Below, piece after piece: positions 2,600 to 64,000 of a stretch of 64,000 nucleotides of DNA (positions are counted from its first letter, which is position 1; each line of letters begins with the position of its first letter). Below the pieces are notes generated by a model, which ran no database searches, was not told the DNA's origin, and was given only the letters and a program-made list of their open reading frames with translations. The DNA is taken from NCBI GenBank assembly GCA_020341815.1, contig CP070837.1:465743-529742 (forward strand), read 5' to 3'. A program made the translations under genes and the position numbers. Origin of the DNA: Candidatus Omnitrophota bacterium. Lineage in GTDB: Bacteria > Omnitrophota > Gorgyraeia > JAFGHF01.

Positions 2600-4672
2600 T
2601 TACACCGAAATTAACTCTACATTCTTGGAACGAAGTCTCTCTTTGACCTTTTCGCGAATAAGCGAATGCTGATGGCTTTTAAGCTCCGGGTCACGCTTCA
2701 CTAAGGAAAAAGCACTATCCCGCGCAAGCTCCATCAACTCCATATCCTTAACGATATTTCCCAGCTTCAATTCCGGCAGGCCGTGTTGGGCCGGACCAAA
2801 AACTTTCCCCGGGCCGCGAATATCCAAATCTTCCTGGGCCAGGCGAAAGCCATCCTGGGTATTAACAAGAGCGTCAATGCGCAACTTCGCCTTCTCTGTT
2901 GCACCGGCTTGAGAGACTAAAATGCAGTAAGACGGATGCGACCCCCGGCCAATCCTTCCTCTTAACTGATGCAGCTGGCTCAGGCCAAATCTCTCTGCAT
3001 GCTTAATCACCATTACCGAGGCATTGGGAATATCTATACCCACCTCAATCACAGTGGTAGCAACCAGTATATCTATCTTACGATTTTTAAAATCCTGCAT
3101 GGCTTTTTCTTTTTCTAACCTTTTCATCCGGCCGTGAATAAGCCCGATCCTGCTTGTGCTAAATTCACTCTTACGTAAACTCTCATACATCTCGGTAGCA
3201 GCTCTAAGCTCCAAACGGGGACTGTTTTCAATCAGGGGATAGACAATATAGGCCTGCCTGCCGCCAGATACTTCCTGACGGATAAAATTATATACATCTT
3301 TGAGGGCGCTCTCTTTAACCCAGACAGTGGAGATAGGCACTCTCCCCTTCGGCAGCTCCTTTATTGTGGAGATATCCAAATCCGCATAAAGAGTCATAGC
3401 CAATGTGCGCGGGATGGGCGTGGCGGTCATTATCAGGCAATCCGGCCTCCCTCCCTTTTTGCGCAAAGAAGACCTCTGCAGGGTGCCAAACTTATGCTGT
3501 TCATCAATTACTACCAGCCCCAACTTCTTAAACTCTATCTCTTTTTCAATCAGGGCGTGGGTGCCTACAACTATATCTACTGTCCCTGATTTTATATCCT
3601 CAAGCGCCTCCAGTTTAGCTTTAGGGCTCATGCTCCCTATCAAAAGCCCCACACTGACATCCAAAGGTGCAAATAATTTACTTAACAAAAGATAATGCTG
3701 CTCGGCCAGAATCTCCGTAGGAGCCATAACTGCGGCCTGAAATCCGGATTGCACACTTAAAATGAGGGCATAAGCGGCCACTATGGTCTTTCCTGAGCCC
3801 ACATCCCCCTGCAGAAGCCTGTTCATTTCTTTTGAGGATGCCATATCCTCTTCTATCTCCTTAATGGCCTTATTTTGTGCGGAAGTCAACTTAAAAGGCA
3901 AAATCTTTAAAAAATCTTTTATCAACTTCTCTTCTGTTTTATGGGTGATGCCCAATTCTCTCTTGTTGCGCCAATATCTCTTCAGGGCAAAAATCATCTG
4001 CAGCAGAAAGAACTCATCAAACACCAGTCTGCGATAAGCCGAACTCTCCGAGTTGCTGTCATTAGGAAAATGGATATGCCTTATAGCCAGAGTTAAAGGC
4101 AAGAGATTTAACTTCTTCTTCAATTCATAAGGCAGCATATCCGGAATAAAGGAAGTAAACTTTTGAATTGTCCTGTCAATGACAGTGCGCAGGTATCTCT
4201 GTTTAAGATTGGCAGTCAAAGGATAAATGGGGACAATTCTGCCTATATGCAAAGATGAATCTTTCTCAAACTCAGAAATAAGTTCAAAATCAGGGGTATT
4301 CATCTGCAGCAAGGGGCGCCTGGCGACCTTGCCATAGAGGATTAACTTATCTCCTATCTTAAAATACTTTTTCATAAAGGGCTGATTAAACCAGATAGCC
4401 GAAAGCACACCGCTCTCATCCCCCACGGCAATCTCGAATATGGAAAGGCCTCGCCTGCTGCGCCGAAAGCTCAAGTTGATTATCTCTCCTTTTACCGTGG
4501 CAAAATCATTCGCCTGCACTTCAGCAATAGGGGAAAACGTTCTCCTGTCCTCGTATCTGCGGGGAAAGTAATAAAGAAGGTCGCCAACGGTATAGATATT
4601 CAAGCGATTCAATAACTTGAATCTCGCCGGCCCCACGCCTTTGATATATTGAACGGAATCTTTTAAATGCAT
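2600..4672 (-). CDS. recG: ATP-dependent DNA helicase RecG
   Basis: 690 aa; wedge/OB N-terminal domain; helicase motifs GDVGSGKT, DEQHKFG, TATPIPRTL; RecG C-terminal region. Confidence 0.9.
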   Translation of the reverse strand: MHLKDSVQYIKGVGPARFKLLNRLNIYTVGDLLYYFPRRYEDRRTFSPIAEVQANDFATVKGEIINLSFRRSRRGLSIFEIAVGDESGVLSAIWFNQPFMKKYFKIGDKLILYGKVARRPLLQMNTPDFELISEFEKDSSLHIGRIVPIYPLTANLKQRYLRTVIDRTIQKFTSFIPDMLPYELKKKLNLLPLTLAIRHIHFPNDSNSESSAYRRLVFDEFFLLQMIFALKRYWRNKRELGITHKTEEKLIKDFLKILPFKLTSAQNKAIKEIEEDMASSKEMNRLLQGDVGSGKTIVAAYALILSVQSGFQAAVMAPTEILAEQHYLLLSKLFAPLDVSVGLLIGSMSPKAKLEALEDIKSGTVDIVVGTHALIEKEIEFKKLGLVVIDEQHKFGTLQRSSLRKKGGRPDCLIMTATPIPRTLAMTLYADLDISTIKELPKGRVPISTVWVKESALKDVYNFIRQEVSGGRQAYIVYPLIENSPRLELRAATEMYESLRKSEFSTSRIGLIHGRMKRLEKEKAMQDFKNRKIDILVATTVIEVGIDIPNASVMVIKHAERFGLSQLHQLRGRIGRGSHPSYCILVSQAGATEKAKLRIDALVNTQDGFRLAQEDLDIRGPGKVFGPAQHGLPELKLGNIVKDMELMELARDSAFSLVKRDPELKSHQHSLIREKVKERLRSKNVELISV

Positions 4673-6015
4673 GCTTTGGTAAAGTTTGTATCTACGGTCT
4701 TAACCTTAACCTCTCTTAAACTATTTATATCTTTTTTGTCAGCATTTTCTACGATAATGCGGATATAATTTTCGGAATATCCGCAAAAACTACTGCTTTT
4801 TTTGTCCCGTTGAGATTCTATTAACACTTCTAACCTCTTTCCTAAAAAGCGCTTTCGGAACTTATAAGAGCACGCGCTGGCCACTTTCTTTAATAAATCT
4901 GCCCGCGCCTTAACTACTTCCTTCTCAATATGCCCTTCCAAATTAAAGGCCGCTGTCTTTGCGCGAGGACTGAAAGAAAAGACGTGAGTTCTCAAAGGGC
5001 AAATCTCTTTTAAAGCGCGCATAGTATTGCGAAAGTTTTTTTCTTTTTCTTGCGGAAAACCCACCAGGACATCCGTAGTTATAGCGATATTCTTGATTTT
5101 CTTATTAAGCTTTGTGATTAAAGAAAGATAATCCTTAATTGAATATCGGCGGTTCATTTTCTTCAGGATATTGTTATCTCCGCTTTGTAAGGGGATGTGC
5201 AGATGCGGGCAAATCCTCTTGCTGTTTGCCATTATTTCTATCAGCTTGTTACTGATAAGGTTAGGCTCAATGGAACTCAAACGCAGACGAAATTCACCTT
5301 TTATATTTTCCAGGGCCTCTAAGGCCTGCGCCAATTCAATATCTCTATAACGATAAGCGCCCAGACAGATACCGGTTAAGACTATCTCCTTAAACCCCCT
5401 CTTTACCAGGCGTTTACACTCGGCAATAATCTCTTTCTGTGGGCGGCTCCTGGAGACACCGCGGACTAAGGGCACCTTGCAGTAAGAGCAGAAATTGCTG
5501 CAGCCGTCCTGTATTTTTACAAAAGCGCGCTCATGCCCCTTAAAATCGGATATTTTAAGAGGGGTAAATTTTCCGTTGTTCGTTGTTCGTAGTTCATAGT
5601 TCGTAGAAGATAAAAAATCGATAATCCTATGCTTCTGCTGATTGGGGAGAATGTGGATTTTATCGGACATCCCTAAGATATCGAGAGGCACCTCATTAGC
5701 ATAACAGCCCGTAACAATAATTCTGGACTCAGGATTTAAGCGAAAGGCCCCTCTGATTAGGCGGCGAGAATCCCTGTCGGCCTCATCAGTAACAGTGCAG
5801 GTATTGACAATATAAATATCTGCCTTCTTGCCCTTCTCTTCCTTGAAGGCAGCCTCTAACAACAACTCTCTTAAACCTTGAGTCTCGTACTGATTGACTT
5901 TGCAGCCAAGCGTATAGAACTTTACCCCGCCCTTCCTTCTATTGCCTTCATCCACATCTATTATGCAAGGCGTGGTATCTGGAAGGGCGGGGTTTACTCT
6001 TTTTTTGTATCGCAT
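4663..6015 (-). CDS. MiaB-family radical SAM methylthiotransferase (MtaB/RimO-like)
   Basis: 450 aa; MTTase N-domain (FYTLGCKVNQYETQ), radical SAM core (CSNFCSYC = CxxxCxxC), C-terminal TRAM-like region. Contains an in-frame low-complexity insert encoded by a tandem repeat at about 5560-5600. Confidence 0.75.
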   Translation of the reverse strand: MRYKKRVNPALPDTTPCIIDVDEGNRRKGGVKFYTLGCKVNQYETQGLRELLLEAAFKEEKGKKADIYIVNTCTVTDEADRDSRRLIRGAFRLNPESRIIVTGCYANEVPLDILGMSDKIHILPNQQKHRIIDFLSSTNYELRTTNNGKFTPLKISDFKGHERAFVKIQDGCSNFCSYCKVPLVRGVSRSRPQKEIIAECKRLVKRGFKEIVLTGICLGAYRYRDIELAQALEALENIKGEFRLRLSSIEPNLISNKLIEIMANSKRICPHLHIPLQSGDNNILKKMNRRYSIKDYLSLITKLNKKIKNIAITTDVLVGFPQEKEKNFRNTMRALKEICPLRTHVFSFSPRAKTAAFNLEGHIEKEVVKARADLLKKVASACSYKFRKRFLGKRLEVLIESQRDKKSSSFCGYSENYIRIIVENADKKDINSLREVKVKTVDTNFTKACI

Positions 6016-15079: not shown

Positions 15080-16555
15080 TTATTTCTCCAGTATGTCAAG
15101 GATGCTTTCCATTGCCTCTTCTTTTTTCATGGCTGACTGAACAAAGTCCCCATAGCCCTCTGGCGGAAGGTGTCTCTTTAATGAAGTCAATCCTGCCATC
15201 CGCGCGCGCTCTTTAGCCAAATGCGGAGTAATAAAGATGATTAATTCCTTATCCTCTGAACTGTCGTCTTTTTTACAAAATAGACTTCCCAATAAAGGAA
15301 TATCCCCTAAAAAAGGGACTTTTCTCATAATCTTCTCATCTTCGGTGTTAATTAATCCGCCGATTATTACAGTCTCTCCATCGGCAACGGTAACTGTAGT
15401 CTTGACGCTTCTGGTATGAGGGTCAAGGGCATTGGCAAGTATCGAGGAAACCTTTGTATTAATTACCGATGGCTCAATAATCATGGTGATCTCGCCCTGA
15501 GTATTAATCTGTGGGGTTACTTTCAGCGTCACTCCTGTTTCTACCCTTTCAGGGGAAACAATTGCCCTATCAATACCTCCTCCTGTAGAAGCAATCTCCT
15601 GTTGTTCGCTGGCAATTACCGTCTCGGCAGTAATCTTTATCTCAGCGGTCTCGTTATTCAGGGTGAGGACTTTCGGCCTGGCCAGGATCTTGCTATCGGT
15701 ATCCCTAGCAAGCATAGCCAGTGTCCCGCCCAGATTCATCGCCGAGATGTATCCCAGATAAAGGTTATCTACATTGCCGGCGGGGCCGACCTTTCGCATA
15801 TTGTTAGGTTTGGTAAAGGGAAAGGTGCTGCTACGCCCTGCCCCATAGGCAGAGGCAACTATTCCATCGGTAGCAGTACCCCATTCTATGCCCAGCTTAT
15901 CGATGGTTTCTAAGCTCGCCTCTATGATTTCGGCCTCAATCATTACCTGAGGAAGCTTTATATCGAGCTCTTTTATCGTCTTTTCAATCTTGGGAAACTG
16001 ACTGCGCACATCGGTAACGATAAGGCTATTGGTGCGCGAATCCTCAATCACCTGACCAAACTGGCTGACTATTTTCTCTATCACTTCCTTGATGCCGATT
16101 TCTTCGGACTGCCGCGCTTCCTGGCCGGCAGCGGTAAGCTCATATCCCTTTACCCGTGCATACTGCAGAGGAAAAACTTTGGTAATTGTCTCTACCTCCG
16201 GACGGCCCCATTCCTTAACTATAAATATTTTGCTGTCTTTTTTCTGCTCATAGCTTAAGCTGTTTGCCGTCATTATGGTATTTAAGGCATCTTCCACCGA
16301 AACCTTGTCCAGATAAAGGGTAACTCTGCGCTCCTTAACACTTTCACTGGCAATAAAGTTTAAACCGGCCTGCTGGGAAAATACCTTCAAGACATCCTTT
16401 AAGTCGGCATCCTGGAAGTCCATTGAAATTACCGGCAAACCCGATTCTTGTCCCAACTCATCCCCTGACTGCGCCCGGCTTAAATTGAGACCTAAGCCAA
16501 ATACCAAAAATAAGGCCAAAGGAACAAGTAAAACAACCCTTCTTTTTTTAAGCAT
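15080..16555 (-). CDS. pilQ: type IV pilus secretin PilQ
   Basis: 491 aa; signal peptide, secretin N domains, C-terminal secretin motif VPFLGDIPLLGSLF. Confidence 0.85.
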   Translation of the reverse strand: MLKKRRVVLLVPLALFLVFGLGLNLSRAQSGDELGQESGLPVISMDFQDADLKDVLKVFSQQAGLNFIASESVKERRVTLYLDKVSVEDALNTIMTANSLSYEQKKDSKIFIVKEWGRPEVETITKVFPLQYARVKGYELTAAGQEARQSEEIGIKEVIEKIVSQFGQVIEDSRTNSLIVTDVRSQFPKIEKTIKELDIKLPQVMIEAEIIEASLETIDKLGIEWGTATDGIVASAYGAGRSSTFPFTKPNNMRKVGPAGNVDNLYLGYISAMNLGGTLAMLARDTDSKILARPKVLTLNNETAEIKITAETVIASEQQEIASTGGGIDRAIVSPERVETGVTLKVTPQINTQGEITMIIEPSVINTKVSSILANALDPHTRSVKTTVTVADGETVIIGGLINTEDEKIMRKVPFLGDIPLLGSLFCKKDDSSEDKELIIFITPHLAKERARMAGLTSLKRHLPPEGYGDFVQSAMKKEEAMESILDILEK

Positions 16556-16565
16556 ATTATCCCCC

Positions 16566-16660
16566 TTTTATCACTGAAGCCACTGAAGTTGTTAACTGAA
16601 ACCACTGAGGCTTTATTCAGTGCTCTCAGTGTTATTTTTTCAGTGTTTTTCAGTGTCTCT
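16566..16660. repeat. intergenic palindromic repeat element, family A, copy 1 (CACTGAR units mirrored by YTCAGTG units)
   Basis: tcactgaagccactgaag...aaccactgagg // ttcagtgctctcagtg...ttcagtgtttttcagtgtctc. Imperfect 90-nt palindrome sitting between the pilP stop and the pilQ SD (AAAAGGGGGG). Confidence 0.6.
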
Positions 16661-16663
16661 GTT

Positions 16664-17104
16664 TTATCTTCTTCTTAATCTTTCGTCTTCCCTTAATATA
16701 GTAGGCCTGAGTATGTATTGATTTCCCTCATACAATACATAAACGCCCTCTTTGCGTATATCCAATATCTCTGCGCCTTCAATAACCTCACCTGGCCTTA
16801 CCACTGTATTATTAATAATTGCCTGGGGTATTTTCGAATCCCAAATCATACCCTGAACTACAAGATGAGCTAACCCCCCTGCGATGGGCGCCCTCTTCTT
16901 TTCCTTCGGCACCTCTTCCAGAGGCACAAACAATTCAAAAGGGCTCTCAAATGGATCACGCAGGCCCCGGCCGGTATATTCTACCGTCCCAGTCTGTCTT
17001 TTCAAAGTACGCTGGGCCCTGACCAGGGGATATCCTGCAATCAATGATAAGACGGCCAAAAGCCCCAAGCAAAACATTATTTTTTTCACCAAGGTTTTTT
17101 TCAT
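16664..17104 (-). CDS. PilP-like pilus assembly lipoprotein (putative)
   Basis: 146 aa; signal/lipobox-like N-terminus. Call rests on position between PilO and PilQ. Weak primary-sequence recognition. Confidence 0.45.
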   Translation of the reverse strand: MKKTLVKKIMFCLGLLAVLSLIAGYPLVRAQRTLKRQTGTVEYTGRGLRDPFESPFELFVPLEEVPKEKKRAPIAGGLAHLVVQGMIWDSKIPQAIINNTVVRPGEVIEGAEILDIRKEGVYVLYEGNQYILRPTILREDERLRRR

Positions 17105-22656: not shown

Positions 22657-22670
22657 GAATACCCTCCCCC

Positions 22671-22883
22671 TTTTAATGAGCACGTAACTTATGGAACATA
22701 GTGAGCATAAGTCGCTGTGCGAATTAAACCCCGTACCAAAATACTGCCAAGTTTCATATTTTTGGCATAACTAATGCCATATAGCATTAGTTTACTCTTA
22801 GTTTCAACTGTTGAAGTATTTTGGTTCGGGGTAAGTTCGGACATAGTCTTATGTTCGCTTCGCTCCATAAGTCTAGCCCTTAC
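22671..22883 (-). repeat. structured repeat element, family C, copy 1 (about 200 nt; putative 5' leader RNA or MITE-like)
   Basis: About 80% identical to 34930-35145. 17-bp outer stem (ACCCCGTACCAAAATAC / GTATTTTGGTTCGGGGT) plus nested hairpins (TGCCAA..TTGGCA; ATGCCATATAGCAT; TTCAAC.GTTGAA). Ends at the SD of the downstream gene. Confidence 0.6.
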
Positions 22884-24355: not shown

Positions 24356-24488
24356 AGTTCGTCGCTTTGCTCCTCACAGTCGTTAGTATCTAGTCGCTAG
24401 TATCTAGTTAAAAAGTTTTTTATATAATCTTTAATATTTATAAGTGTTTTTATTTTACTAAATACCAGATACTGAATACTATCGACTA
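24356..24488. repeat. intergenic inverted-repeat element, family B (AGTCGCTAGTATCTAG arms around an AT-rich core)
   Basis: tcgttagtatctagtcgctagtatctagttaaaaag...AT-rich core...ccagatactgaatactatcgactattaatattg. Arm is homologous to 63940-63990. Confidence 0.5.
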
Positions 24489-25115
24489 TTAATATTGCTC
24501 GCTTTTCTGCGCAAGAATATTAATCAAGTCGGTAGCCGTCCTTTCCATCTCCAGGACAAAGCCCTTTACGCGGCTGACCAGATAATTGTAAGCCACGAAA
24601 GTAGGTATAGCCACAATCAATCCTGCGCAAGTCGTGATTAAGGCCTCCCAAATCCCTCCGGCTAAATCTCCCGGACCAACCGGATGAAGAGAAGTGGCCT
24701 TCTCTTGAATAATCTGAAACGCCCTGACCATTCCCGTAACCGTACCCAATAGACCCAATAACGGCGAGATATGCGCGATAGTTGCCAGCGCCCCCAGATT
24801 CTTTTCCAGGCGCGGCACTTCATAGATTCCTGCATCCTCTATGGCTTCCTTTATCTCGCCTCTTGCGCGGTCATGTTTTAAGATACCCGCCTTTATAATA
24901 TAGGCAATGGGCCCGGGGGTCTTCTCGCATAAATTTATGGCGTCCATAATCCGGTTACGCCTTATGGTATTGGATATGCTTTCCATAAATCTATCGCTAT
25001 CGATTTTTGCCCGATGTAAATGGTAGAGCCTTTCAATAACCACAGCAAAAGCCACAACAGAGCAAAGGATAATCAAATACATTATCGGACCGCCCTTTTG
25101 AATCAAATCCCACAC
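24489..25115 (-). CDS. exbB: MotA/TolQ/ExbB proton channel protein
   Basis: 208 aa; three TM segments. Conserved C-terminal channel region (PLLGLLGTVTGMVRAF). GTG start preceded by AAGGAGG. Confidence 0.8.
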   Translation of the reverse strand: MWDLIQKGGPIMYLIILCSVVAFAVVIERLYHLHRAKIDSDRFMESISNTIRRNRIMDAINLCEKTPGPIAYIIKAGILKHDRARGEIKEAIEDAGIYEVPRLEKNLGALATIAHISPLLGLLGTVTGMVRAFQIIQEKATSLHPVGPGDLAGGIWEALITTCAGLIVAIPTFVAYNYLVSRVKGFVLEMERTATDLINILAQKSEQY

Positions 25116-25126
25116 TTTTTCCTCCT

Positions 25127-25222
25127 TTTAACACTGAGAACACTGAATTACTGACACTGAGAACACTGAAAGAAAAACTTCAGTGGTTTCAGTGATTATT
25201 TCTTCAGTGGTTTCAATGTCTC
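25127..25222. repeat. intergenic palindromic repeat element, family A, copy 2
   Basis: aacactgagaacactgaattactgacactgagaacactgaa // cttcagtggtttcagtg...cttcagtggtttcaatgtctc. Lies between the stop of the HTH-TM gene and the exbB SD. Confidence 0.6.
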
Positions 25223-25535
25223 ATTTAACAAAAAAGATAACTATCAATAAAACTATGCTTATAATTGCAGAGATGATATAAAAATCATTAAAATATAAGA
25301 AATCTTTTATTTTTTCCCAGCGTTGATTCACCGGTCCGGATGAGGATTCTCGCTTTTCAACTTTAGTTATCCCCTGGCTTTTGATTATATCAATCTGCCC
25401 TTTTCTAAATCTCAAAATAGTGCCTCCGAGCCTATAGGCAGGAATCTCGCCTTTTTCTACCAGATTTCTTAAATCATCCTCTGAAATATCCAGATATCGA
25501 CAGACTTCTTTTACATTCAAAAGTTTCTCTGACAT
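25221..25535 (-). CDS. membrane-anchored excisionase-family HTH protein (N-terminal HTH_17, C-terminal TM helix)
   Basis: 104 aa; LLNVKEVCRYLDISEDDLRNLVEKGEIPAYRLGGTILRFRKGQID, then YIISAIISIVLLIVIFFVK. Confidence 0.6.
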   Translation of the reverse strand: MSEKLLNVKEVCRYLDISEDDLRNLVEKGEIPAYRLGGTILRFRKGQIDIIKSQGITKVEKRESSSGPVNQRWEKIKDFLYFNDFYIISAIISIVLLIVIFFVK

Positions 25536-25562: not shown

Positions 25563-26135
25563 TTACTTTATCTTTTCACTGGCAATCCAAACATCGACTT
25601 TGGCCCGGTCAAACTTCCAGTTATTACCTTCTTTTTGCGTAGGAATTTTGCCTGCCTTGGCCCAGTTTAATATTGAACTGGCGTCTACTTCTAAATATTT
25701 TGCCAATTCATCAACCGTCATCAATGCTTCCTGCATCGTAGAACGGCTGGGTTTGGCTGTCTCTTTTGATTCCATCTGAATTTTTCCCTGCACTACTGCC
25801 CCTTCGGCTATACTGAGACTGCAGGTGCGGATATCTCCCGCCAAATATGCGCTGCGGCTAAGACTGAGACTCCTGGTGGCCACTACATTGCCATAAACTT
25901 TGCCGCAAATTTCAATGTTCTCTCCGATAATATCGGCCTGCACCCGCGCATTTTCTCCTATGGTTAAATTTCCCTTGGTGTCCAGGCTGCCTTCAAATTT
26001 GCCGTTAATGCGCAAATTTACCGCATCGCGAAATGTAAGACTTCCCTGCATACTGGCATCAACATCAAGAATCTTTTTCTCTTCAGCTTGAGCCTTTAGC
26101 TCTTCCTTTTCCTTTCTTTTGGCCCTAAAAGCCAT
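25563..26135 (-). CDS. bactofilin domain protein fused to a C-terminal excisionase-family HTH domain
   Basis: 190 aa; residues about 30-125 match the bactofilin beta-helix repeats (RINGKFEGSLDTKGNLTIGENARVQADIIGENIEICGKVYGNVVATRSLSLSRSAYLAGDIRTCSLSIAEGAVVQGKI). C-terminus VDELAKYLEVDASSILNWAKAGKIPTQKEGNNWKFDRAKVDVWI is a paralogue of the 19168-19395 HTH. Confidence 0.8.
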   Translation of the reverse strand: MAFRAKRKEKEELKAQAEEKKILDVDASMQGSLTFRDAVNLRINGKFEGSLDTKGNLTIGENARVQADIIGENIEICGKVYGNVVATRSLSLSRSAYLAGDIRTCSLSIAEGAVVQGKIQMESKETAKPSRSTMQEALMTVDELAKYLEVDASSILNWAKAGKIPTQKEGNNWKFDRAKVDVWIASEKIK

Positions 26136-26155
26136 AGTTGCACCTCCTCTTTTTT

Positions 26156-26250
26156 TATCACTGAAGCCACTGAACTTGTTACACTGAAGTCACTGAGAAT
26201 CTATTCAGTGTTTTCAGTATCATTTTTCAGTGTTCTCAGTGTCTTACAAT
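26156..26250. repeat. intergenic palindromic repeat element, family A, copy 3
   Basis: tcactgaagccactgaacttgttacactgaagtcactgagaa // tctattcagtgttttcagtatcatttttcagtgttctcagtgtctt. Lies between the stop of the MgtC-family gene and the SD (AGAGGAGGTG) of the bactofilin-HTH gene. Confidence 0.6.
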
Positions 26251-34929: not shown

Positions 34930-35145
34930 TCCCTACCCCCTTTAATGAGCACATCGCTTAGCGAACAAAGTGAAGCTAAGTGATAAGTGCGAATTGAACC
35001 CCGAACCAAAATACTGCCAAATATTACACTTTGGCAAAACTCGTGCCATATGGCATTAGTTCGCTCTTAGTTTCAACCATTGAAGTATTTTGGTACGGGG
35101 TAAGCTCGGACCTATAAGTTATGTCGCCTTAGATTAACTAAAGCT
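34930..35145 (-). repeat. structured repeat element, family C, copy 2
   Basis: Homologous to 22671-22883 (ttaatgagcac...gcgaattgaaccccgaaccaaaatactgccaa...tgccatatggcattag...ttcaaccattgaagtattttggtacggggtaag). Abuts the GH5 start. Confidence 0.6.
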
Positions 35146-63201: not shown

Positions 63202-63936
63202 TTAATGTCGACTCTGAACTAATTTAACCTCTCCCCAGGCCCCGATCTTCTCACCAATAATCAGCACAACACCCTTAATTCCTGCAACCGGAGCTCTGTC
63301 TTTGACAAATGTCAATGTTTCATCCACACAAGAAGCAGATTTAACCATATTCCCCAGGCGCGTAGCCCAGGCATCGGCCAAAATGGCTGAATTACAAATA
63401 ACCACTGCCGCATCGCTCTTACCAAAGCTTAAAGACGGCCCCACTGTGCCGCTTGAGGTACAAATCCCGCAAGGTGCCTGCGGAGCAATCTCCAAAGCAA
63501 TCTTTCCGCTATATACAGATTCACCGGCAAAGATACCCACCCTCCTTGTGTGATTAGTCCGCATAAAGATATCTCCGCCGTTCTCCACAATTACCTCTGA
63601 AGAAGCTTTAAGCAAGTCTTTAGCCACATATTCGGCAATGGCTCCGGCTACTGCGGCCATCGGCCCCACACCAGCGCAAGATGAAGCCTCTGCCATTTCC
63701 CGGACAATATCAGGAGCTTCTGCCCCTACAGAATAAGGCGCAAGGGAAGTGGCAAAGTCGGGGTCAACCCGAATATAATCCTGAATAAGCCTGCGCTGCC
63801 TATCCAGAGACTCCCGGGCAAAAGCAGCTAAGGCCTTATCTGCGCGAATAAACAGGTCACTCTCACCCAGCTTGACCCTGAAGCTGAAAAGACTCTTATC
63901 TTCTACCCAACTCTGATATGTGCGGCTTTGATACAT
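63202..63936 (-). CDS. UPF0280-family protein (ApbE-like fold, function unknown)
   Basis: 244 aa; Gly/Ala-rich core [19 protein letters not shown]...VENGGDIF, recalled as typical of UPF0280. Family assignment is from memory, not a search. Confidence 0.45.
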
Positions 63937-64000
63937 AATATTAGTCGCTAGTATTCAGTCGCTAGTCGCTCGTATCTGGTATCTAGTAAAAAGATAAAAA
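63937..64000. repeat. family B repeat arm (partial, cut by the window edge)
   Basis: taatattagtcgctagtattcagtcgctagtcgctcgtatctggtatctagtaaaaag is homologous to the arms of the 24356-24488 element. Confidence 0.4.

Follow-up and report, generated by a model that had tools for sequence, protein, structure and literature searches.

CACTGA-built palindromic repeats fill three operon junctions of an Omnitrophota genome and have counterparts in distant bacteria and archaea

The stretch of DNA analysed here (the window, 64 kb of a 1.55-Mb contig) contains three intercistronic gaps of 105-108 nt, all within minus-strand operons, that are wholly occupied by palindromic repeats built from the motif CACTGAR and its reverse complement. 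The first copy (c1, 16566-16660, minus strand) sits in the 108-nt gap between the stop codon of a pilP-like gene (16664-16666) and the ATG of the secretin gene pilQ (16553-16555), the second (c2, 25127-25222, minus strand) in the 105-nt gap between the stop of an HTH_17 gene (25221-25223) and the GTG of exbB (25113-25115), and the third (c3, 26156-26250, minus strand) in the 108-nt gap that separates the stop of mgtC (26244-26246) from the ATG of a bactofilin-HTH_17 gene (26133-26135). On the 3' side of each copy lies a Shine-Dalgarno (SD) sequence of the host, unpaired in the predicted fold: GGGGG at 16561-16565 for pilQ (outside the element; SD and start codon together at 16553-16565, minus strand), GGAGG at 25121-25125 for exbB (25113-25125, minus strand) and GAGGAGGTG at 26141-26149 for the bactofilin-HTH gene (26133-26149, minus strand). 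The distance from the end of the copies to the start codon is thereby 16-23 nt, with the SD in between. The original prediction had named these three positions and had placed each copy inside a minus-strand operon, after one gene's stop codon and ahead of the following SD; both points were confirmed at all three junctions.

The copies are imperfect palindromes of 84-95 nt in which four CACTGAR units, a loop and four YTCAGTG units follow one another (units at 16572-16655 in c1, 25132-25218 in c2 and 26159-26241 in c3). Read along the minus (gene-sense) strand, the order in each copy is two units, a 7-9-nt spacer, two units, a 6-8-nt loop, two units, a spacer and two units, the paired units recurring with a 9-10-nt period. 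One unit per copy is degenerate (TCAGTT in c1, CATTGA in c2, TACTGA in c3); the CATTGA of c2 is its first sense unit and keeps a G-U pair in the sense RNA. The four-unit arms pair over their full length and provide terminal inverted repeats, the pairing being confined to the heptamers, as the arm spacers are not complementary. The outer ends read AGA-CACTGA...TCAGTG-WTA, and the predicted 3' end TCAGTG(A/T)TAAAAGG is exact in c1 and c2, while c3 departs from it with TCAGTGATAAAAAAAGAGGAGG. All three copies are non-coding (no ORF, and TGA stops within the units). TRF reports short tandem structure inside them, and an inverted-repeat search misses gapped palindromes of this kind.

The clustering of the motif is pronounced, since 21 of the 29 CACTGAR matches in the window fall inside the three copies (8.1 +/- 2.8 matches are expected for the window as a whole). 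A composite pattern that demands two units 9 nt apart within each arm (CACTGA-N3-CACTGA-N4-34-TCAGTG-N3-TCAGTG) recovers c1, c2 and c3 only and finds nothing in 100 shuffles of the window; a scan of the 64 kb revealed no fourth copy, even a degenerate one. Pairwise identity among the copies amounts to 68-77% over their whole length, non-unit spacers (e.g., TAACAA, GGC) included, and we therefore derive them from one source rather than from independent slippage. Invariant columns make up 41 of 50 unit positions and 10 of 38 spacer or loop positions (Fisher p = 2e-7), a comparison that is somewhat circular because the alignment was anchored on the units.

The orthologous junctions were inspected in four syntenic Omnitrophota contigs (L116-L119; PilQ 61-66% identical), of which L117 and L119 alone span all three; the PilQ of the next relatives is at most 69% identical to that of the window. 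The pilP/pilQ junction (108 nt in the window) measures 2-58 nt and is empty in all four relatives, the HTH_17/exbB junction (105 nt in the window) measures 19 and 43 nt in L117 and L119, and the mgtC/bactofilin junction (108 nt in the window) is 15 nt long in L117 and replaced by overlapping genes in L119. At the HTH_17/exbB junction L116 has 88 nt that carry an unrelated palindrome. No CACTGA clusters were detected in 85 kb of L116-L119 with one mismatch per unit allowed. All sites covered in the relatives thus lack the element, which contradicts the reading of the copies as ordinary conserved intergenic sequence, the outcome that the original prediction had set against its own.

The clearest empty site is found in L117, where GGCAGGAACTA-TAA-AAAGGAGGTG...ATG corresponds to GGCAGGAATTG-TAA-GA, the element (c3) and ATAAAAAAAGAGGAGGTG...ATG in the window; hence, the element is bounded by a stop codon and an SD that both belong to the host. 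An SD equivalent (AAAGGGGG or AGAGGGGG) is already present in the empty pilP/pilQ junctions of L116 and L118, and the empty junctions of L117 carry ATAAAGGAGGCAAAGATG (HTH_17/exbB) and TAAAAAGGAGGTGTAGTTATG (mgtC/bactofilin). We accordingly rejected the SD as a part of the element, given that it also occurs in the empty sites of the relatives. A mobile cassette of two genes bounded by c2 and c3 was likewise rejected, as the relatives keep the gene order without the elements. Candidate target-site duplications in the window (TAA, GATAAAA, TGTTAAA) are A-rich and overlap the last unit, none of them being unambiguous. Loss of the elements in the relatives instead of insertion here is the less probable course, being unparsimonious, although the nearest relatives are distant.

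We consider it probable that c1-c3 are small non-coding palindromic repeats of the MITE/REP kind, inserted between a stop codon and a pre-existing SD after the split from the sampled relatives. They share with MITEs a length under about 500 bp, the lack of coding capacity, terminal inverted repeats, an occurrence at several unrelated loci and empty orthologous sites. The earlier suggestion of REP/BIME-like repeats or a MITE family is supported as regards a MITE/REP-like repeat family (empty sites, a common source, many copies elsewhere, and clear target-site duplications in one lineage) and fails for REP/BIME in the strict sense on account of size, composition and tag. Each copy would have landed in a short A-rich spacer between the upstream stop and the existing SD inside an operon, and the heptamers (CACTGAR, in tandem with a 9-10-nt period), rather than the spacers, would be the conserved part, recognized by a sequence-specific trans-acting protein, most plausibly a transposase or recombinase encoded elsewhere. 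We infer in this manner both the mobility of the elements in this genome and the trans-acting factor. The placement in A-rich sequence next to ribosome-binding sites (RBS) may reflect an insertion preference or survival in the few permissive spacers of a compact genome.

The neighbourhood of the elements (loci totalling about 0.8 Mb) was surveyed by all-versus-all ORF clustering and Pfam, and neither a transposase nor any other protein that recurs was found beside or between them. The Pfam families of the neighbours comprise sulfatases, ABC ATPases, T2SSE, GcvT, L28, guanylate kinase and FabD, and the genes that lie between pairs of elements are housekeeping ones (L28, guanylate kinase, FabD, amylase), with no RAYT-like gene among them. 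The composite pattern yielded no matches in 2.9 M viral contigs and blastn against plasmid and phage collections produced no match to the elements, on which grounds a phage or plasmid origin was rejected. A metagenome scan with the 3' end of the window subfamily returned 27 matches, all attributable to chance and consisting of just the two required units; no further copies of this subfamily were found in that collection.

In the sense RNA, the copies fold at -35.7 (c1, z = -7.0), -34.6 (c2, z = -4.2) and -37.0 kcal/mol (c3, z = -6.2), with no shuffle as stable in any of the three cases. These predicted hairpins are strong and segmented and leave the SD unpaired. When the element is deleted in silico, the SD-start region keeps nearly the same predicted probability of being unpaired (0.51 versus 0.57 in c1, 0.41 versus 0.50 in c2 and 0.62 versus 0.60 in c3); the hairpins appear to be self-contained and, in the folding model, barely alter the accessibility of the RBS, as would suit insertions that are retained because they are nearly harmless. 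In the operon mRNA each copy would then fold alone into a four-segment hairpin of about -35 kcal/mol with the SD and start codon free, and this would explain how a compact genome can tolerate such insertions. They would probably also cause the loss of tight stop-start coupling and the creation of a barrier to 3'-to-5' exonucleases or of an RNase III site. An intrinsic terminator was rejected (the full hairpin is followed by AUAAAAGG, without a U-tract), and a terminator scanner gave weak matches in the innermost helices only (18 found versus 17.3 expected by chance). Rfam searches of the window recovered one tRNA and nothing else at the gathering threshold, the best matches of a permissive search (E = 0.13-0.98) falling far below gathering, and 18 loci from other phyla yielded tRNAs only.

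A regulatory role of the copies in mRNA decay or translation, as put forward in the original prediction, is possible, the evidence speaking neither for nor against it. That such a role is the reason for their presence, the hairpins being host-recruited cis-regulatory RNAs that set the stability or translation of neighbouring cistrons, or else a CACUGAR/UCAGUG array bound by an RNA-binding protein that governs initiation at the downstream gene (an idea already put forward for TAACTGA repeats), we regard as unlikely, even if it survives better than the other alternatives. Strong hairpins do adjoin the RBS, with the same asymmetric orientation to transcription in all three copies, the units are conserved while the spacers drift, and copies in other Omnitrophota end 0-12 nt before an ATG, often without an SD. 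This is similar to the TAACTGA repeats, whose ends lie 1 nt ahead of start codons (PMC4679880), and intercistronic stem-loops are known to set the stoichiometry of operons (PMC4423207). In the sense RNA only, CAUUGA and UACUGA, which are two of the three degenerate units, can still pair through G-U, and the summed stability of the copies is -107.3 kcal/mol in sense versus -98.1 kcal/mol in antisense (sense is the more stable in c1 and c3, not in c2). Across eight co-directional elements, however, sense exceeded antisense stability in 6 cases versus 2, which is not significant (p = 0.2), and a C-to-U bias on the non-template strand would give the same trend. Moreover, the four syntenic relatives keep the same genes and SDs at junctions that do without the element, the flanking genes are functionally unrelated, the predicted RBS accessibility is almost unaltered, and the elements of other phyla face stops, starts, convergent and divergent genes alike. 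We hence retain the insertion of MITE/REP-kind repeats as the preferred reading.

The CACTGA copies are not the only palindromes at such junctions. The 133-nt exbB-exbD gap of the window is taken up by a palindrome of a second family, whose AGTCGCT/AGTATCT heptamers recur every 7 nt (24376-24490, minus strand; fold -34.2 kcal/mol, z -5.5), a gap that in L116-L119 measures 1-8 nt or is replaced by overlapping genes, the palindrome being absent. Its second copy (63935-64000, minus strand; fold -34.1 kcal/mol, z -5.1) is cut by the window edge and complete at 349-447 of L151; it occupies a gap of 112 nt from stop to ATG, its end lying 5 nt short of the ATG at 63936 (the genome beyond the window was viewed through a 2.4-kb Logan contig). 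L116 carries a perfect palindrome, TTGATACTTGACATC-TTT-GATGTCAAGTATCAA, just upstream of two start codons (1015-1102 and 372-696), and one of its copies occupies the HTH_17-exbB junction that holds c2 in the window. Considering this second heptamer family and the L116 palindrome at the HTH-exbB junction together, such junctions are permissive sites.

Two other repeats were encountered in the window. An internally palindromic repeat of about 190 nt occurs twice (22662-22845 and 34931-35114; 78-87% identity), and an intergenic insert of 325 nt in L116 (372-696) contains its end motifs CGAATTAAnCCCC and GGGGTAAGTTCGGACATATAAGTTATGTCGC as well; it is probably another MITE family shared among Omnitrophota. 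A tandem array of the heptamer CGTTGTT/CGTAGTT (4.7 copies, 5574-5606) is part of the coding ORF 4663-6015 (minus strand); it forms no palindrome and has no relation to the intercistronic families.

The composite pattern was then sought in a 596-Gb collection of reference genomes, where more than 114 matches in about 45 assemblies were found among the matches listed. The chance expectation for the collection is about 0.1 by our own estimate, the same method fitting a 19-base pattern with 27 chance matches as expected. The carriers among the matches listed belong to Verrucomicrobiota, Chloroflexota, Omnitrophota, Bacteroidota, Alphaproteobacteria, Chlamydiales, Auribacterota and one CPR genome, and at least 17 loci in the same listing come from a single Luteolibacter MAG (Verrucomicrobiota). 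Archaeal-labelled MAGs are also among the matches listed. One of their contigs (L082) encodes an archaeal primase PriS above the curated cutoff and a weak GINS23-like match, and we therefore take it to be truly archaeal. This haloarchaeal contig carries CACTGA-, CACAGA- and CACCGA-type palindromes (797-851, 890-938 and 3023-3073), the last of which is flanked by the priS stop and the gins start.

Across these genomes, 128 elements follow one build: 2-4 units per arm, a median length of 72 nt (range 46-185 nt), ends of the form AAC-CACTGA...TCAGTG-GTT and avoidance of C after the unit. A 9-nt period accounts for 370 of about 560 unit intervals (the pattern itself demands one such interval per arm). 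The elements are multi-copy, mostly intergenic and found in every gene orientation. The CACTGA arm comes first in 129 of 129 CACTGA-type elements, a count biased by the fact that the selection of most of them required this polarity. A search of the same genomes at identical stringency gave 12 elements of other composition, 9 of them of the CAC(N)GA type, and all six sister families with a single substitution differ at position 4 only (CACAGA three times, CACCGA three times; four genomes, three phyla). On this evidence CAC(N)GA looks like a recognition motif with one free position. Control hexamers run against the viral contigs gave 3 (reversed polarity), 1 (CAGTCA) and 0 (ACCTGA) matches, too few to serve as a baseline; the reversed-polarity matches are ordinary sequence with 2+2 units.

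In several genomes the CACTGA palindrome is embedded in a larger repeat. The Luteolibacter MAG has near-identical 204-bp elements with outer inverted repeats (CATGCGCGTCAAG...) and the CACTGA palindrome at their centre, and the direct duplications of 7-10 bp that flank them (of unrelated GC-rich targets) lie outside the outer repeats; since these signals of mobility are tied to the outer repeat, the CACTGA core may simply travel with it as a passenger. An alphaproteobacterial MAG has the palindrome nested inside arms of CGCAGAG units, and in a Chloroflexota MAG (L008 97-864 and L009 5499-5831) a tandem array with a 323-nt period alternates CACTGA-type and CACGAA-type palindromes. Given such different shells, the core behaves as a module within lineage-specific surroundings.

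Further variants were observed in single loci. Expansion of one arm to about 15 or more units, resembling minisatellite slippage, is seen at L055 4617-4801 and L099 2041-2224 (units CACTGATGS and TCAGTGGTA). A Sediminibacterium-like pair (L019 5114-5168 and L046 3748-3802) has the element at an orthologous site with the central unit pair and the loop inverted, which implies recombination between the arms. In the Omnitrophota MAGs MZGK01 and DAOWIN01 (L003 1351-1416, L023 6496-6590, L027 346-427, L037 1409-1467, L056 1653-1759, L070 872-963) only 0-12 nt separate the last TCAGTG unit from the ATG (exactly 5 nt in 4 of 6), often without a recognisable SD, and in two of these copies the 3' arm is truncated, with 4-5 units on the left and 2 on the right. 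Elements located exactly at contig ends (L007 3703-3752, L097 308-357, L078 1-45, L092 1-100) suggest that they break the short-read assemblies of their MAGs.

A role at the level of DNA, with the CACNGA heptamers, spaced at about one helical turn, forming either an array for a chromosome-associated protein (of the nucleoid, topoisomerase or recombinase type) or a cruciform site, comparable to gyrase or IHF binding at BIMEs, seems to us improbable. The fixed polarity of the motif, its 9-10-bp period and the conservation of positions 1-3 and 5-6 next to a free position 4 are as in a protein recognition site, the motif is present in many phyla whatever the context of transcription, and the flipped palindrome centre between the orthologous Sediminibacterium loci points to arm-arm recombination of DNA. 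Nevertheless, no candidate protein was found in the loci surveyed, the elements were inserted in particular lineages and are not landmarks conserved along the chromosome, and a transposase that recognizes the motif accounts for the same features. A local and independent origin of c1-c3 (slippage and palindrome formation in A-rich spacers, with no dispersed or mobile family), to which the slippage expansions of L055 and L099 and the short tandem structure reported by TRF would lend some colour, is effectively refuted by the sequence comparison, as unit order, the 2+2|2+2 architecture and the spacers are common to the three copies, the same architecture recurs in other Omnitrophota and the chance expectation of even one such site in the window is 0.

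As probable MITE/REP-kind insertions, the copies invite comparison with several known systems. Correia/NEMIS elements of Neisseria and the ERIC/IRU elements of enterobacteria are small, non-coding inverted-repeat MITEs, present in many copies near genes and transcribed as mRNA hairpins; they vary in presence or absence at orthologous sites, are restricted to a genus and have a unique terminal repeat of 20-30 nt. The window copies resemble them in being small, non-coding, intercistronic and hairpin-forming, with inverted-repeat arms, and in their absence from the sites of relatives, but their arms consist of a 6-7-nt unit repeated every 9 nt, a clear target duplication (TA or otherwise) is not seen in the window, they have no known parent insertion sequence and, in contrast to the genus-restricted families, the CACTGA unit occurs across phyla. 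Integron attC sites are imperfect palindromes as well (57-141 nt, directly after stop codons), with R''/R' boxes of the form RYYYAAC...GTTRRRY, a cassette array and an integrase. The AAC...GTT ends of many CACTGA elements in other phyla recall these boxes, whereas the window copies lack the AAC/GTT ends, an integrase and a cassette array, and are flanked by the conserved genes of syntenic operons.

REP sequences are 20-40 nt long and GC-rich, with a GTAG or CGTC tag (PMC3733652). Like REP/BIME and the REPINs that RAYTs move, the CACTGA elements are extragenic palindromes often found in operons (REPs can protect upstream mRNA), and in the alphaproteobacterial and Chloroflexota loci they combine with other motifs in a mosaic fashion; unlike REPs, c1-c3 are 84-95 nt in length, AT-rich, segmented and free of the GTAG/CGTC tag. 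The TAACTGA heptamers of Beggiatoaceae, Cyanobacteria and Bacteroidetes (MacGregor 2015) are head-to-tail repeats with a 7-nt period and little predicted structure, with one inverted set reported; they stop 1 nt short of start codons, and their mechanism is left unexplained (PMC4679880). With these and with the cyanobacterial STRR heptamers the present elements have in common an ACTGA core, an intergenic location (often near a start codon) and a patchy distribution across phyla. They differ in the CACTGAR unit, the 9-10-nt period and the invariably palindromic arrangement, and in the canonical SD that, in the window, stands between the element and the start codon. No TAACTGA tandem repeats were present in 1.1 Mb of DNA examined.

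Literature searches on the motif found, within the library covered, no published description of CACTGA palindromes (primer noise was returned), and their occurrence across distant bacteria and archaea is apparently new to the literature. We tentatively entertain the idea, for which the odds are against rather than in favour, that the CAC[T/A/C]GA palindromes are one undescribed pan-prokaryotic superfamily of intergenic elements (9-nt period, fixed polarity, AAC...GTT ends), maintained or moved by one kind of sequence-specific factor, with a core that is portable among lineage-specific elements and a possible mechanistic link to the TAACTGA/STRR heptamers. Of all the results, this cross-phylum CAC(N)GA grammar most deserves to be followed up, subject to a comparison with arbitrary hexamers.

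For the organism at hand, the insertions explain the unusually long intercistronic gaps in tightly packed and conserved operons (type IV pilus, ExbBD), and their sites mark places where the coupling of genes may have changed. Metagenome assemblies are broken to a large extent by short palindromic repeats, from which new regulation also arises time and again. Should the CAC(N)GA palindromes be one class in distant bacteria and archaea, identifying the protein that recognizes them would reveal a new mobile-DNA or nucleic-acid-binding system, and the old puzzle of bacterial heptamer repeats could become experimentally testable.
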